Origin: an uncultured delta proteobacterium
GTDB lineage: Bacteria > Desulfobacterota > Zymogenia > Zymogenales > Zymogenaceae
Reading direction: 5' to 3'
DNA: 64,000 bases
NCBI GenBank assembly: GCA_963792965.1
Contig: CAWBYW010000018.1
Location: forward strand, 1-64,000
A program made the position numbers and the translations under genes. Numbering within the stretch: position 1 is the first letter of the stretch; each line of letters opens with the position of its first letter. The notes below the pieces were generated by a model. It saw nothing but the letters and a program-made list of their open reading frames with translations. It did not search any database and was not told the DNA's origin. Of this stretch, positions 53,820 to 62,023 are shown in pieces.

Positions 53820-54086
53820 ATGACAACCGACTACCATAACCGAGACGTCCTCCCCTTCTGCCCCTTCTGCAAACACCTCTCCGAGGTCGGCCGGCCCGTC
53901 GGCGGCCACGTCCAGTTTTTCGGAGACTATCTCCATTTCTTTGTATTCCGGGGCACGCTCTACTATTCCCGCCTGGCAGAGTGCATCACCTGCCGGAGGA
54001 CCTACGTCTTCTTTGGGACCTACGGCGGCTACCTGAAGGGGGAGGGCCTCTACTGGCCGTTCCCCGAAGTAATCCCAAACAAGTAG
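53820..54086 (+). CDS. small hypothetical Cys4 (zinc-binding) protein
   Basis: 88 aa, CPFC...CITC, host-like codon usage, stop 14 nt before the next start; no obvious RBS. Confidence 0.6.
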   Translation: MTTDYHNRDVLPFCPFCKHLSEVGRPVGGHVQFFGDYLHFFVFRGTLYYSRLAECITCRRTYVFFGTYGGYLKGEGLYWPFPEVIPNK

Positions 54087-54100
54087 GAAAGGAGCACCAG

Positions 54101-55324
54101 ATGGTGGATGAAAAAGAGCGCCACCTCACGCTGGACGAGCGCCGGGAGGCCGAAAAGGTCGAGCAGCTCATCGGCGATACCGGCTTCATCGAGCGCTACG
54201 TGAACTACGCGCGCGAGCTGACCGACGCCCCCCTCATCTTTCACTTCTTCAACGCCCTGGCGATCCTCGGGGCCGCCGTGGGGCGGCGCACCTACATCCC
54301 CTGGGGCCAGAACAACATCTACCCCAACCTCTGGGTGATCCTGCTTGCCGCCTCCACCAACTACCGCAAGACCACGAGCCTGCGCATCGCCGAGTCTATC
54401 CTGCGCGGGCGCGACAAGGGCCTGGTCTTCCCCAACGAGTTTACGCCGGAGTCGCTTCTCAGGCAGCTGTCGCGCACGCCCTGCGGGATGCTGTCGCTTG
54501 ACGAGTTCGGGCTCTTCTTGACCTCCACGAAAAAGGAATACATGCGCGGCGTGGCTGAGATCCTCACGACGCTCTACGACTGCCCGCCCGAGTACAACAA
54601 GGAGATCATGAGCGGCTCGATATCGATCGAGCTCCCGTTCATCTCGATCCTTGCCACCTCCACCATCGACTGGCTGACGGCCAACGTCAACGAAAAGGAC
54701 ATCCGGGGAGGGTTCCTGGGGAGGTTCCTCTTGGTGCCGTCGTGGGTCAAGTACGGGTGGCTGGCCATCCCGCCGGAAAAAAACATCGAGATCGCAAAGA
54801 AGCTCTCGGAGTGGCTGGGCGAGATCGCCATGGACATCATTTACCCCAAGACCTACCTTTCCGAGGACGCGCAGGATGTTTTCGTCGAGTGGCTCAAGGA
54901 ACACGAGGACGACCTGAGCGCGCGGAGCGAGACCTGCGCGATGCTCTTTTCCCGGATGCCTTCAAACCTCCTCAAGATCGCGCTGATCATCCACCTTGCG
55001 GGCACGCGCGGACCCAGCATCGGGGAGGCGAGCGTGAGGGCCGCCATCGGCGTCATCGAGCTCCTCAAGCCGCGTTACGAGCGGCTCATCGAGCGGGAGT
55101 TCACCTTCACGCGCTTCGAGGACCACAGGAAGAAGGTGCTGGACATCATCGGCAGCAACCAGGACGGCATCACGCGCTCCTCCCTGATGTTCCTTTCCAA
55201 GCTCAAGAAGCGGCGGCTGGACGAGGTGCTGGAGACGCTGATCGAGGAGGAGAGCATCGGCGTGAAGAAATTCAACGCCGGCGGCGTGCGCGACCGGACG
55301 GTGTACCAGCTGCTGGACAGGTAA
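54101..55324 (+). CDS. DUF3987/YfjI-like P-loop protein with C-terminal winged helix (replication-associated helicase-like)
   Basis: YPNLWVILLAASTNYRKTT (variant Walker A), TPESL, DEFG, GFLGRFL, C-terminal GITRSSL...LDEVLETL; AAGGAG RBS before ATG 54101. Confidence 0.72.
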   Translation: MVDEKERHLTLDERREAEKVEQLIGDTGFIERYVNYARELTDAPLIFHFFNALAILGAAVGRRTYIPWGQNNIYPNLWVILLAASTNYRKTTSLRIAESILRGRDKGLVFPNEFTPESLLRQLSRTPCGMLSLDEFGLFLTSTKKEYMRGVAEILTTLYDCPPEYNKEIMSGSISIELPFISILATSTIDWLTANVNEKDIRGGFLGRFLLVPSWVKYGWLAIPPEKNIEIAKKLSEWLGEIAMDIIYPKTYLSEDAQDVFVEWLKEHEDDLSARSETCAMLFSRMPSNLLKIALIIHLAGTRGPSIGEASVRAAIGVIELLKPRYERLIEREFTFTRFEDHRKKVLDIIGSNQDGITRSSLMFLSKLKKRRLDEVLETLIEEESIGVKKFNAGGVRDRTVYQLLDR

Positions 55325-55327
55325 GCA

Positions 55328-55967
55328 TCACCTCACGAAGCAGGCTTCGCGGGGGCCCCGGTAGAGAGGGAAAGCTCGTAATGACGGTGGGGTGGGGTTC
55401 CTTTCCTGTCTTCTCCCCTCTCCCGACGGGGCCCCCAAAAATGCTTGCATTTTTGGGGTGTCCTTGTAAACTTTCCAAACTTAATTTAGCGTATAACAAC
55501 CCCAAACGACTACCAATCCCCTTAGCCCATCCCCCACGGGACAATCACCCCAAAAAGCAGGCTTTTTCGGGGCCCCGATCCCACCCGCTCTTCCCCACAG
55601 CGAAGAAAAGGGGGACCGGGCGGCTCGCAGACGGAAAGGATAGCCAATGTTAGGCCTCTGCTCGTAATGGCAGTGAAACGAATGTTCTTCCCGACGAGGC
55701 CCCCAAAAATGCTTGCATTTTTGGGGTGTCACTCGGACACCACATGTGGTGTCCCTACGGGTTGGTGAACCGGCGATTCAGGTAAGGACGCGTCGATTGA
55801 GCAACACGCCTGTTAGAAACCGAGGGGGCTCACATGTCGTGCCCGTCCTAAAAAAGTCTTCTTTATACCGGGCGGCATATATGCCGCCCCTAGGGTTCAA
55901 ACTCGTCCTCGCTCTCTTCTCCCTCTTCTCTCTCGACGAGCCCCCACGAAGCCTGCTTCGTGGGGTG
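55328..55967. repeat. mosaic cluster of hairpin repeats
   Basis: Five GGGCCCCC-stem-GGGGTG hairpins (55328-, 55428+, 55545-, 55698+, 55938+), palindrome half-copy at 55468-55529, GTAG-type hairpins at 55734 and 55821. Confidence 0.8.
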
Positions 55968-55980
55968 TTATCGGTGAAGA

Positions 55981-58566: not shown

Positions 58567-60435
58567 ATGGTGAAAACCACCATACTCCCGGCGGGGCGCG
58601 AGATGTCTCCGTCCGACTACGAGTGGATCTTCCAGATGGGAGACAACGGCATCTTGCTGCTCTCCGAGGACTACCGGATCAAAAACGCCAACCGGATGGC
58701 CACAGAATTGACCGGCTACCCGTACGACGAGCTGATGGGCAAGGACTTCTCCACCCTGATAGACAAGGAGGGCCGCGATTTCCTCTTCGAGCTCTGCGAG
58801 GGGAGCCCCACTATCGAGAGCCGCCGATTCTGCATGGAGATGGAGCTCTTCACCTCGGGTGGCTCGGCCCGCCTGTTTGACGTCTGCGTGAGCACCGCCG
58901 CCGCCCCCGATAAGAAAAAGAAGATCGCCGTCTTCATCCGGGACCTCACCGAAAGGATCCTGATGGAAGACAGGATCCGCCAGACCAACGAGTTCTTGAC
59001 CTCGCTCATCGAAAGCTCGTACGACGGCATCATCGCGGCCGACATGAAGGGGACCATCATCATCTTCAACAAGGGCGCCGAAAACCTCCTCGGCTACAAA
59101 TCGGAGGACGTGATCGGGAAGATGAGCGCCACGGCCCTCTACCCGCCCGGGGTCGCCCAGGACATCATGAAGAAGCTCAGGGACGAAAAATTCGGCGGCG
59201 CCGGAAGGCTCTCGTCCCAGCGCTACGTCGGGCTCTCAAAGGACGGCCAGCCTATCCCGGTCATGCTTTCGGGCTCCCTCATCTACCAGGACGGCAAGGA
59301 GGCCGCCAGCGTCGGTTTTTTCTACGACTTGAGGGACGTATTGGCCGCCCAGCAGGATATCTTAGAGTCGGAAAAGAATTTCCACTACCTCTTCGAGACG
59401 GTGCGCCACGGCCTCTATATATCCAGCCGGGAGGGGAAGTTCATCGACTGCAACCAGACGCTGTTGGATATGCTCGGCTACCCGACCAAAGAGGAGTTCC
59501 TGGCCATGGACATCCCGCGCGACCTCTGGGTCGACCCCGCCGACCGCCTCGCCTTCCAGGAGGTGATCGAGCGCGACGGGTTCGTCAAGGACTACGAGGT
59601 CACGTTCAAGAAGAAAAACGGCCAGCCCATCGATGTCCAGCTGACCGCCCACACGAAAAAGGATCGGTCGGGCACCTGGTATCAGGGGCTCGTCATCGAT
59701 ATGACGGAGCGCAGGACGCACGAGCGGCAGATGCTCCAGTCTGCCAAGATGGCTTCCTTGGGCAAGCTTGCCGCCGGGGTCGCCCACGAGATCAATAACC
59801 CCCTCGGCGGGATCTTCGTCTACGCCAACCTCCTCAAGGAAAAGATGCCGCCGGATGACCCGCGGTCCGTCCATATCGAGAAGATTCTCAGGTCTGCCGT
59901 CCGCACGAAAGAGATCGTCAAGGGGCTCCTGGAGTTCTCGCGCCCCACCAAGTTCAATTTTGTTTCCACCAGTGTCACCACTGCGCTCGAAAACGTGCTG
60001 TCTCTGTTGGAACAGCAGGGATTTTTCTACCACATCATGATCACTAAAAAGCTCCTCGACAATCCCCCTCACGTGATCGCCGATCCGACCCAGCTTGAGC
60101 AGGTCTTCATGAACATCGTCATGAACGCGGCCGAGGCGATGCACGGGGATGGCTCCATCGAGGTCGCCACGGCATTGTCTGAGGACGGGGACTTTCTGGA
60201 CACGACCATTTCGGACACGGGCCCCGGCATCCCAGACGGCGACCTCGGGAGGATCTTCGAGCCGTTCTTCACCACAAAGGACCCCTCCTCGAAAGGCTCG
60301 TCGGGCACGGGGCTGGGCCTTGCCATCAGCTACGGCATTATCGAGAAGCACAACGGCGCCATCACGGTAAAGAGCGAGGTGGGCAAAGGCACCGCCTTCA
60401 CCGTCCGGCTGCCGGTTGAGGAGAAAAAGGGATAA
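58567..60435 (+). CDS. cytoplasmic triple-PAS sensor histidine kinase (NtrB-like)
   Basis: Three PAS domains, AHEINNPL, NIVMNA, DTGPGI, PFFTTK, GTGLGL; start may be ATG 58603. Confidence 0.92.
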   Translation: MVKTTILPAGREMSPSDYEWIFQMGDNGILLLSEDYRIKNANRMATELTGYPYDELMGKDFSTLIDKEGRDFLFELCEGSPTIESRRFCMEMELFTSGGSARLFDVCVSTAAAPDKKKKIAVFIRDLTERILMEDRIRQTNEFLTSLIESSYDGIIAADMKGTIIIFNKGAENLLGYKSEDVIGKMSATALYPPGVAQDIMKKLRDEKFGGAGRLSSQRYVGLSKDGQPIPVMLSGSLIYQDGKEAASVGFFYDLRDVLAAQQDILESEKNFHYLFETVRHGLYISSREGKFIDCNQTLLDMLGYPTKEEFLAMDIPRDLWVDPADRLAFQEVIERDGFVKDYEVTFKKKNGQPIDVQLTAHTKKDRSGTWYQGLVIDMTERRTHERQMLQSAKMASLGKLAAGVAHEINNPLGGIFVYANLLKEKMPPDDPRSVHIEKILRSAVRTKEIVKGLLEFSRPTKFNFVSTSVTTALENVLSLLEQQGFFYHIMITKKLLDNPPHVIADPTQLEQVFMNIVMNAAEAMHGDGSIEVATALSEDGDFLDTTISDTGPGIPDGDLGRIFEPFFTTKDPSSKGSSGTGLGLAISYGIIEKHNGAITVKSEVGKGTAFTVRLPVEEKKG

Positions 60436-60485
60436 GGATAATGACGTATCGCTTACAGGTGAGCGTATTACAGTTTCCCTCCGTC

Positions 60486-60646
60486 GGGGCCCCCACGAAG
60501 CCTGCTTCGTGGGGTGACGTTGGGCCCCCCGGAAAAGCGCAGCTTTTCTGGGGTACCTTGGGGGCCCCCGCGAAAATGGAGTTTTCGTGGGGTGACTCTG
60601 GGGCCTCCAAAGAAATGAAGTTTTTTTGGGGTGACATGGGGGGTGA
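60486..60646 (+). repeat. tandem array of four variable-stem hairpins
   Basis: Units of 36-39 nt: GGGCC(C/T)CC-stem-loop-GGGGT(GAC/AC) with four different, fully paired stems. Confidence 0.85.
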
Positions 60647-62023
60647 TTGTTGTTGAGCGCCGCCTCCAAGATACTCGTCATCGACGACGATCCCGTGATC
60701 CGCGAGGCGGCCACCGACGTGCTGACCGGGGAGGGCTACATCGTCAAGACCGCCCCCGATGGGGCAACGGGCCTCTCGCTCATCTCCGACCGCGCCTTTG
60801 ACCTCATCCTCGTCGATCTCGTGATGCGCGGTATCGACGGCATGGAGGTCTTGAGGAGCGTAAGAGCCGATGATCCGGACGCGGTGGTGGTGGTCATCAC
60901 GGCCCACGGGACCGTCGAATCCGCCGTGCAGGCCATGAAGCTCGGGGCTTTCGATTTTCTGCCCAAGCCCTTTACCCCCAACGAGCTGAGAATGGTCGCC
61001 AGACGTGGACTCTCGGTGCGGCGGCTCACCCTCCAGAACCGGCTCTTCAAGGAGGAGCTCACGCAGGCCGTCGGGACAGAGCTTGGCGGCATCCACCCGA
61101 TCCTCGGCGAGTCCGAGGCGATCATCCACGTCCGCGAGCAGATCAAGAAGGTCGCCCCCACGAGCAGCACGGTCCTCCTGTTGGGCGAAACGGGAACGGG
61201 AAAGGAGCTCGTCGCCCGGGCGATCCATCAGTTCTCCGAGCGACAGCAGGAGCCGATGCTCATCGTCGACTGCGGCTCGCTTGTGGAGACCCTTTTCGAG
61301 AGCGAGCTCTTCGGCCACGTCAAGGGCTCGTTCACCGGGGCCACGGCCACCAAGCACGGCCGCTTCGAGCTCGCCAACGGCGGGACGCTCTTCCTTGACG
61401 AGATCACCAACATCAGCCTGAAGATTCAGAGCAAGCTCCTCCGCGCCATTCAGGAGCGCGAAATTATCCGGGTGGGGAGCTCCCACCCCATCAAAGTGGA
61501 CGTGAGGATCATCGCGGCGACGAACAAGGACATCCTCGACGAGGTCAGGAAAGGCAACTTCCGGGAGGACCTCTTCTACCGGCTTTCGGTTGTGCCGATT
61601 ACGCTGCCCCCCCTGCGCGAGCGGCGGGAGGATATCACGACGCTTGCCCTCCAATTCCTCGAAAAATATGGGCGGCGCCGCAAGAAGGATATCAAGGCGA
61701 TCTCCGAAAAGGCGATGTCGGCGTTGGTCTCATACCACTGGCCCGGAAACGTCCGGGAGCTGGAGAGCGTCATCGAGCGGGCGGTGGTCTTGACCGAAAA
61801 TGAGATGATCATGCTGGCTGACCTGATGTTTTTCGGAGGAGACCGGACACCCGAGGAGACGCGGACCGACCGACTTCTCGTGACGATCGAAGACATGGAA
61901 CGGGAGCACATCCGCCGCGTGCTGGCCTCAACCGAGGGCAGGAAATCCAAAGCCGCCGACATCCTCGGGATCGACCGCAAGACCCTCAGGCTGAAGATGG
62001 CCAAATACGGGATCGAAGAATAG
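60647..62023 (+). CDS. sigma54-dependent response regulator (NtrC/AtoC family)
   Basis: Receiver, [37 protein letters not shown]-terminal Fis HTH. Confidence 0.95.

Follow-up and report, generated by a model that had tools for sequence, protein, structure and literature searches.

The four hairpins that lie between the genes of a PAS histidine kinase and an NtrC-type sigma54 response regulator very probably represent four distinct members, piled up side by side, of a REP/BIME-like palindromic family that is non-coding and dispersed. The window that we analyzed, i.e. the whole stretch of 64 kb, belongs to contig C18 of a draft assembly (3.36 Mb in 42 contigs, 57.6% G+C, 88.85% complete), in which we found 43 family copies with a pairing-aware scan, 43 with nhmmer (E<=0.01) and 41 with R1, a covariance model built from 27 family copies. 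These copies occur on both strands and beside unrelated genes, and 40 of 43 lie outside ORFs as predicted by a crude, home-made codon-usage caller, on which the orientation and stop-codon statistics given below also depend. The array had initially been annotated as a possible RNA processing or stability array tuning the kinase-regulator operon, or else as an HUH-nuclease substrate array. A device specific to this operon does not agree with the 41–43 copies on both strands of the genome, nor with the orthologous spacer of a sister genus, which holds none.

The array at the kinase-regulator spacer

Read directly from the sequence, the region 60486–60646 harbors four head-to-tail hairpin units of 36–39 nt each, which together span 60486–60635. 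They are placed in the 211-nt spacer between the upstream cistron, the PAS-domain histidine kinase gene (58567–60435, plus strand; an ORF with the Pfam domains PAS_9, HisKA and HATPase_c), and the NtrC-type sigma54 response-regulator gene (60647–62023, plus strand; an ORF with Response_reg, Sigma54_activat and HTH_8). The array starts 47 nt past the kinase stop codon, on the sense strand, and is preceded by a pyrimidine-rich leader (TCCCTCC) and the 5' strand (GTC) of a 3-bp outer helix belonging to unit 1 (60476–60485, plus strand); a CTCTCC-like leader stands before the first unit in most family copies, and the outer helix covaries.

All four units are on the plus strand. Unit 1 (60486–60518; 65.3 bits with R1) consists of a GGGGC tag, a hairpin of 10–11 bp at 60491–60514 and a TGAC tail, whereas unit 2 (60522–60557; 49.8 bits) has a GGGCC tag, a 12-bp hairpin at 60527–60553 with one G-T pair and a TACC tail. 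Units 3 (60561–60596; 57.2 bits) and 4 (60600–60635; 44.7 bits) again carry GGGGC and TGAC and have 12-bp hairpins at 60566–60592, with two G-T pairs, and at 60605–60631, degenerate and with three G-T pairs. In the script that delivered these hairpin coordinates, and which allows G-T, the stems measure 10–12 bp and the loops 3–4 nt (10 bp with a loop of 4 nt in unit 1, 12 bp with a loop of 3 nt in units 2–4), and the number of mismatches is zero. Every non-Watson-Crick pair in the four stems is G-T on the plus strand, and none is A-C; the G-T count is 4 under symmetric scoring and 6 with the 12-bp stems of the initial annotation. The four hairpins and their fixed flanks are real, and the sequence reads as it had first been described.

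Tandem Repeats Finder lists the array with a period of 39, 2.5 copies and a score of 110 at 60506–60605; no other array of that size appears in the 25 rows that it gives for the window. Five further family copies, seen with nhmmer, with R1 and in the sequence, lie within 55318–55978 (55326–55363 and 55543–55579 on the minus strand; 55424–55465, 55698–55730 and 55940–55971 on the plus strand). Short pieces from three sediment metagenome contig sets also match the region, two of them being identical to 60556–60719 and 60561–60698; among these matches, none bridges the whole array. An Rfam scan of 59900–61200 (E<=10) yielded chance-level matches only, the best of which reached 17.9 bits with a plant miRNA model that has a gathering score of 200.

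The predicted fold of the plus strand of 60436–60670 has an energy of -112.9 kcal/mol (z -4.68), which none of 200 shuffles equaled, compared to -82.5 kcal/mol for the minus strand (z -2.11), where 4 of 200 shuffles did as well. For the individual units, the RNA energies on the plus and minus strands are -18.5 and -19.1 kcal/mol (unit 1), -20.9 and -20.0 kcal/mol (unit 2), -17.8 and -13.8 kcal/mol (unit 3), and -12.0 and -5.4 kcal/mol (unit 4). The strand asymmetry is therefore confined to units 3 and 4. The unit as such is strand-asymmetric because of its flanks.

At its downstream end, the array is followed by GGGGGGTGA (60638–60646, plus strand), which is Shine-Dalgarno-like, is similar to a repeat unit's 3' end and stands directly before three consecutive in-frame TTG codons (60647, 60650 and 60653). 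Orthologs of the regulator are found in all four genomes of the sister genus (76–79% identity; 76–78% in G002 and G009). Their ATG aligns with the third TTG, the ortholog alignment beginning at residue 3, and judging from this alignment, the real start of the regulator is probably at 60653. GGGGGGTGA therefore precedes the likely start by 6 nt. The native sites of the orthologs, GAGGAG or GGGAGG, are here replaced by this sequence resembling the end of a repeat unit. In the predicted minimum-energy fold, the CCCUCC leader pairs with the GGGGGG of the ribosome-binding site, a structure with an ensemble frequency of 0.001. Simple scans of the spacer yielded neither promoter-like nor terminator-like sites, the only terminator-like site lying inside the kinase gene on the other strand, so that the array is presumably transcribed within the kinase-regulator mRNA.

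A dispersed family of palindromes and its subfamilies

A family unit is ~39 nt long, with a hairpin core of 24–27 nt. In 5' to 3' direction, it is made up of a CTCTCC-like leader, a 3-bp outer helix, an unpaired GGGGC that faces a single T, the stem, the loop, and GGGG with a TGAY-like tail; the leader and the outer helix are features of first or solitary units. The stem comprises 11–12 bp and starts with CCCC, the loop has 2–5 nt, and the hairpin foot is GGGGC or GGGGT in both alignments of the family. Two copies on contig C7 enclose a 326-aa ORF, which matches no Pfam family.

The stem subtypes of the array recur at other loci of the genome. For units 1–4, the best core match elsewhere has 100, 96, 96 and 85% identity, as opposed to 67, 85, 85 and 70% for the best match inside the array. 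For instance, the core of unit 1 is identical to those of copies at C25:70722 and C25:65605, the cores of units 2 and 3 are 96% identical to copies at C37:23489 and C25:65702, respectively, and even unit 4 has its best relative elsewhere (85 versus 70%). Since the units are closer to these copies than to each other, the array did not originate by duplication in place; as judged by sequence similarity, it is assembled from different family members. Consequently, the initial view of the array needs to be amended. Its stems are indeed fully paired when G-T is allowed, but they do not diverge freely, as they represent recurring subtypes of a genome-wide family, and the proposed design of a CRISPR in reverse, with variable palindromes, dissolves into different subfamilies that each recur elsewhere. 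Eight head-to-tail junctions with an envelope gap of 0–1 nt are found at six loci, and the linker between GGGG and the following GGGGC invariably measures 7–8 nt. These junctions and their constant linker point to an oriented addition beside an existing unit.

Base pairing is well conserved within the family. In a model-fitted alignment of 50 distinct copies from this genome and its relatives, 95.1% of the cells are paired, compared to 80.0% after shuffling and 42–57% in controls with slid partners; both partners vary in 10 of the 15 pairs, the three of the outer helix being among these. As such an alignment is biased towards its own structure, the values from a MAFFT alignment, 81.8% versus 72.3% after shuffling, are safer. 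Both alignments strongly support covariation, with pairing being kept through compensatory changes.

The wobble pairs are less clear-cut. While the array shows the strand specificity that the initial annotation had ascribed to it, genome-wide the bias is weak, with 20 G-T versus 8 A-C pairs in 43 copies when both are scored alike, and 25 versus 13 in the 50 distinct aligned copies (binomial p 0.07). About half of the G-T pairs fall on one position, the fifth pair (R opposite T), in either orientation of the copies, which looks intrinsic to some subfamilies. Outside the fifth pair, copies in sense orientation have 7 G-T and 0 A-C pairs and antisense copies 3 G-T and 7 A-C pairs (Fisher p ~0.01, from small numbers, related copies and crude gene calls). 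Wobble pairs that follow the direction of transcription would be expected from selection at the RNA level and from C>T deamination of the non-template strand alike. Given the weak genome-wide bias, this link to transcription and its two possible causes, the proposal of selection on a single-stranded structure of one strand is therefore only partly borne out: the pairing is upheld, whereas the strand bias is weak and, apart from the intrinsic fifth pair, tracks transcription.

Spread, placement and possible roles

Outside the source genome, the family is distributed very unevenly. It is carried by 6 of 41 relatives, a set that includes the source genome with 41 matches; the others belong to the sister genus g3, where all four genomes have it (5, 11, 51 and 68 matches), and, in a single case with 15 matches, to another family. 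The remaining 35, among them the three other genera of the same family, have none. Of 151 genomes that sample the phylum evenly, 4 contain it (E<=1e-5). To look across phyla, we used a pattern scan of public genomes, filtered with a profile; as the pattern fixed both ends of the unit, only the hairpin between them is independent evidence. Among the matches listed, which are dominated by Acidobacteriaceae, the unit is found in metagenome-assembled genomes (MAGs) titled delta proteobacterium (two of them being the sister-genus genomes G007 and G009), Eubacteriales/Clostridia, Acidobacteriaceae, Alphaproteobacteria, Dormiibacterota, Saccharimonadales, Cloacimonadota, Propionibacteriaceae and Eisenbacteria. 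A Eubacteriales MAG of 2.0 Mb (G043) contains as many as 94 copies (E<=0.001), and one genome of the phylum has 16 matches of identical score. Five of these 16 copies were read; they are identical, sit 28–35 nt away from a contig end and each form part of a ~200-nt mosaic that also contains three other hairpins. Such a patchy occurrence, together with a copy number that varies and copies that are identical, is typical of a repeat that spreads.

The copies also have a preferred position relative to genes. In 12 of 43 cases, the 3' (TGAY) end abuts the stop codon of a convergent gene, with 2–11 nt between stop codon and GGGG in the 11 of these copies that were measured, while the mirror arrangement does not occur among the 43. 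Random choice of placement and strand in the same spacers gave a mean of 0.99 such cases (sd 0.95, maximum 5 in 2000 trials). The array studied here differs from the stop-abutting copies in that it is on the sense strand, after the kinase stop codon. In the two intact sister-genus operons, the kinase stop codon and the regulator start are separated by 93 nt (G002) and ~85 nt (G009), and neither spacer contains a hairpin unit, by sequence or with R1 with its filters off. This hairpin-free orthologous spacer marks the array as a lineage-specific accretion; the comparison runs across genera, whose spacers are not alignable, and thus speaks to the presence of the array rather than to exact insertion boundaries.

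The initial annotation had suggested looking for a RAYT/Y1 or other nuclease gene flanked by the motif. In the source genome, PF01797 (Y1_Tnp) has no match, in contrast to control genomes, which do match. Y1 genes are present in 25 of the 41 relatives, including all four sister-genus genomes, but nhmmer detected no family copy at 30 Y1 loci of these relatives. When R1 was run with its filters off, the four sister-genus Y1 loci likewise lacked a copy, giving just one chance-level match (E 0.77, at locus L135), and a total of ten Y1 loci gave two single hairpins, both in Acidobacteriaceae, besides that chance-level match. In G002 and G009, the 230-aa Y1 genes instead lie between copies of another inverted repeat, which ends in GGGGACAC. 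The source genome has two inverted pairs of this other repeat with no gene in between, and a TIRYT must therefore once have been present in the lineage; the Y1 gene at L135 has no bracketing TIR. In Acidobacteriaceae, a single family hairpin lies 130–320 nt from a Y1 gene at three loci, L198 (= L235), L201 and L223, and a scan of 28 Acidobacteriaceae Y1 loci found two with one hairpin, on one side only. Two of the three adjacent genes are of a type with a Y-x3-Q-x2-HH motif, which carries its own GCCC...GGGT hairpins, and the three proteins do not form one close group. These family hairpins look like neighbors of the Y1 genes, not partners.

Searches from the side of the repeat gave a similar picture. 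A tblastn comparison of Y1 ORFs with the 120 listed pattern loci returned four matches, weak or irrelevant, and the six gene sets that are bracketed by copy pairs in G043 and G009 (five -/+, one +/-) comprise no transposase; they encode AzlC, hydrolases, lactate dehydrogenase, transporters and the like. The genomes G043, G028 and G147 contain no intact Y1 gene, G147 having only a broken Y1 fragment with no family copy beside it; these assemblies are fragmented by repeats, and a transposase could therefore have escaped assembly. In summary, the source genome, at 88.85% completeness, has no Y1 or RAYT gene, and none of the Y1 loci examined is bracketed by the motif. With no Y1 gene tied to the family, mobilization of a single strand by an HUH enzyme is therefore argued by analogy. 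Of the options that the initial annotation had offered, a REP-like or HUH-substrate-like repeat comes closest.

How might such an array have come about? We propose that its units would have been added successively beside an existing unit, by a mechanism that likely reads a folded single strand in the style of the HUH/Y1 transposases acting on REPs. Tentatively, the family may have spread through this folded single strand with the help of an HUH/Y1-type enzyme that acted in trans and is now lost or unassembled here. Once in place, the hairpins (-12 to -21 kcal/mol each) could present barriers to 3'-exonucleases and thereby uncouple the two cistrons, and the repeat-like GGGGGGTGA would now serve as the ribosome-binding site of the regulator. 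Judging from the predicted folds, it is a real possibility, if somewhat short of probable, that the array is co-transcribed and that its stable RNA hairpins protect the kinase portion of the transcript against 3' exonucleases or reduce read-through to the regulator, with GGGGGGTGA supplying a ribosome-binding site that the CCCUCC leader may occlude. Such a regulatory effect is probably a by-product of the insertion, not the reason for the array. The sense copies, whose only mismatches are G-T, could, however, reflect selection on the RNA hairpin, which would give the array more of a function.

The opposite emphasis, that of a dedicated cis-regulatory RNA array whose hairpins set the ratio of kinase to regulator via processing, a stability barrier or occlusion of the ribosome-binding site by the CCCUCC leader, appears improbable to us. 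It would agree with the sense orientation of the array in a spacer free of promoter-like and terminator-like sites, with the far better fold of the plus strand, with array wobble pairs that are all G-U in the transcript, with the uneven wobble pairs of sense and antisense copies (7 G-T and no A-C against 3 and 7, leaving the fifth pair aside), and with the pairing of leader and GGGGGG. Yet units of the same family are found in either orientation at ~40 further places, beside genes that are unrelated, the array draws its units from different subfamilies, and the orthologous operon of the sister genus manages without hairpins; moreover, C>T deamination predicts the wobble pattern equally well, and the minimum-energy structure accounts for a very small part of the ensemble (0.001). 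Recognition of the double strand is much less probable still. The GGGGCCCC palindromes are self-complementary and nearly invariant, and the neighboring gene encodes a DNA-binding activator, so one might think of duplex sites for this sigma54 activator or for a nucleoid protein; the compensatory changes in the stems and the outer helix, however, indicate pairing within one strand, copies are found at loci and in phyla that have nothing to do with this regulator, and the array is located inside an operon rather than upstream of a promoter. Least of all do we expect a small protein gene, although an ORF of 71 codons with an ATG start (60441–60656) stays open and in frame through all four units, as both unit lengths, 36 and 39, are divisible by three; its product would be a repeat peptide. 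The AGGA of this ORF is too close to the ATG, base pairing is conserved where codons are not, and the same units are also known from non-coding spacers on either strand and from distant phyla.

Closer to our preferred reading, a pile-up of members of a dispersed palindrome family, are two narrower accounts of the mobilizing machinery. According to one of them, which we regard as doubtful, the array is strictly a substrate of an HUH/Y1 enzyme (RAYT or TIRYT), i.e. its units are REPs or TIR-type repeats whose cognate Y1 gene is lost or unassembled. The REP-like build, in which an imperfect palindrome carries an unpaired tag at its 5' foot and is followed by a short tail, argues for this, as does GGGGTGAC at the end of three of the four units, which fits the TIRYT-associated GGGGWSAS in the relevant passages of PMC3733652 and PMC6006769. 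The co-occurrence of repeat and Y1 genes in all four sister-genus genomes, the gene-less pairs of the TIR known from G002 and G009, and the hairpins near Acidobacteriaceae Y1 genes can be read in the same way. On the other hand, no examined Y1 gene is bracketed (none at 30 loci with nhmmer, and none at four of them revisited with R1), the Acidobacteriaceae cases amount to 2 of 28 loci with one-sided hairpins beside genes that have hairpins of their own, the sister-genus TIRYT carries a different TIR, strict GGGGWSAS is found in only 7 of 43 copies, and the copy-rich G043, G028 and G147 lack an intact Y1 gene. According to the other account, which we think unlikely, the family is an orphan cross-phylum repeat, moved by machinery not yet known rather than by a known REP-RAYT pairing, or of de novo origin. 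The head-to-tail arrangement with fixed spacing, the oriented landing at stop codons, and the 94 copies and 16 identical-score matches in assemblies without an intact Y1 or RAYT gene point in this direction. If this were true, the RNA form may stay foldable by selection in whichever direction it is transcribed.

For the kinase-regulator operon, all of this is of little importance; in all probability, the array is a chance product of the spreading repeat. For the biology of repeats, by contrast, the family is a useful case: it occurs in several phyla, very patchily and with no transposase attached, and it shows a strict preference for orientation and position at gene ends as well as head-to-tail accretion. 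It could help to find the enzyme or mechanism behind REP-like movement, and it may also bear on selection at the RNA level. A more general lesson is that covarying hairpins in a single window can be mere subfamilies of a dispersed palindrome.

Comparison with known repeat systems

In the passages on GTAG-tagged REPs in PMC3733652 and PMC6006769, these repeats are described as hairpins whose 5' foot bears GT[AG]G as an unpaired tag and which have a cognate RAYT (TnpA-REP). Our family has GGGGC as its tag, and no RAYT gene is found in the source genome or beside any copy examined; on both counts, it was rejected as a GTAG REP. The CGTC-1 to -4 REPs are portrayed in part of Di Nocera et al. 2013 (PMC3733652) as having stems of 8–9 bp with A/T in the first two positions, loops of 4–5 nt, a CCA tail and predominantly head-to-head dimers. 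The family resembles them in that no dedicated transposase is known and that it extends over several phyla. As to the terminal CGTC (or TGTC/CCTC) tag of these REPs, some family copies have CGTC or TGTC in front; [C/T/G]GTC stands before GGGG in 6 of 27 seed copies, and ATC, ACC or GAC in the others. Unlike the CGTC REPs, it has stems of 11–12 bp that start with CCCC, a TGAY tail and mostly head-to-tail arrays. Membership among CGTC-1 to -4 was rejected as well, as stem length, stem start, tail and dimer type all differ from these descriptions.

The third comparison concerns the TIRs of TIRYT genes (‘TIRtrons’), where inverted copies enclose a long Y1 gene that often has a DnaA-type HTH. These TIRs share a GGGGWSAS motif in the sections of PMC3733652 and PMC6006769 that deal with them; TIRYT is equated with TnpA-Y1 subclass 2.1 in the corresponding part of Quentin et al. 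2018 (PMC6006769). The GGGGTGAC ends of three array units fit this motif, the family shares the moderate copy number and the dimers and clusters of TIRs, and a true TIRYT-type TIR family coexists with it in the lineage. However, only seven of the 43 copies in the genome fit strictly and most end in GGGGTGAT, GGGGTGTC or GGGGTGGT, no TIRYT gene is flanked by family units, and these units are self-complementary hairpins instead of plain terminal inverted repeats. A search of literature full text for GGGGCCCC as a repetitive extragenic palindrome retrieved only crystallography of unrelated oligonucleotides.

As the features of the family match neither the GTAG REPs nor the CGTC families and the TIRs only in part, it is apparently an undescribed REP/BIME-like family without a known transposase, where the distinction from published REP and TIR families is drawn from text descriptions, not from repeat sequences, and identity with a listed TIR family is possible. 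Its close neighbors are mainly arranged head-to-tail with a fixed linker, unlike the alternating units of REPs and BIMEs. Otherwise, the likeness to these elements is extensive: the copies are likewise short, imperfect, extragenic palindromes, with hairpin cores inside the 20–40 nt typical of REPs, which number in the tens and often cluster; the 5' foot bears a conserved tag that is unpaired, the 3' tail is short, most copies lie downstream of genes, transcription as RNA hairpins is plausible, and in one genome the copies form part of a larger mosaic.

Reading frames and possible strain variation at the array

A 71-codon open reading frame (60441-60656 of the window) stays in frame across the four units of the array, since the unit lengths (36, 39 and 39 nt) are multiples of three. 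Its translation is a repeated ...SWGD/FWGT... peptide, and it is probably not a gene. The sigma54 response-regulator gene that follows begins with three in-frame TTG codons in succession (60647-60655), the third of which coincides with the position where the ATG start of its orthologues falls. A 188-nt metagenome contig (run X2) matches window positions 60561-60698 exactly, but its first 50 letters do not align with the window upstream of 60561; the contig may come from a related strain in which the array is arranged differently, or it may represent a further copy.

Other copies of the family

Elsewhere in the window, five copies in the orientation order - + - + + (55318-55978) fill a gene-free spacer of 0.9 kb. 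This spacer is immediately preceded by a DUF3987 gene (53981-55324), whose stop codon adjoins the first copy. On another contig of the same genome, two copies form an inverted pair (locus L192, C7:565040-565306) about 50 nt downstream of the 5S rRNA gene with which a 16S-tRNA-tRNA-23S-5S operon ends. Three further copies on that contig flank a stretch (locus L191, C7:594500-600500) in which the codon-usage caller mostly called no genes. Because this largely uncalled stretch holds a gene with DUF3644 and restriction-endonuclease-like parts, as well as a 326-aa ORF without a Pfam family, it may be a genomic island.

In G147, a copy-bearing genome of the phylum sample, the hairpin unit sits inside a larger mosaic element, about 200 nt long, that also includes three other hairpins. 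This mosaic has 16 matches with identical scores, and all five copies that were read (L252-L256) lie at contig ends; one of them contains a second unit of the family, in inverted orientation.

Repeats and hairpins near Y1 transposase genes

The genome of the window also carries a second repeat, beginning AATTAAGGGGACAC, as two inverted pairs (C11:5343/5408 and C16:120815/120881), both of them gene-less. The same AATTAAGGGGACAC repeat brackets TIRYT-type genes for 230-aa Y1 transposases in two sister-genus genomes (L136 and L140), and the corresponding transposase appears to have been lost in the genome of the window.

In Acidobacteriaceae, Y1 genes with a Y-x3-Q-x2-HH motif (L220-L236) have hairpins of their own, with 9-bp GCCC...GGGT stems and 4-nt loops, which are located about 40-60 nt upstream and in some cases downstream as well. 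At one of these loci (L223), such a hairpin comes directly after one unit of the family studied here.
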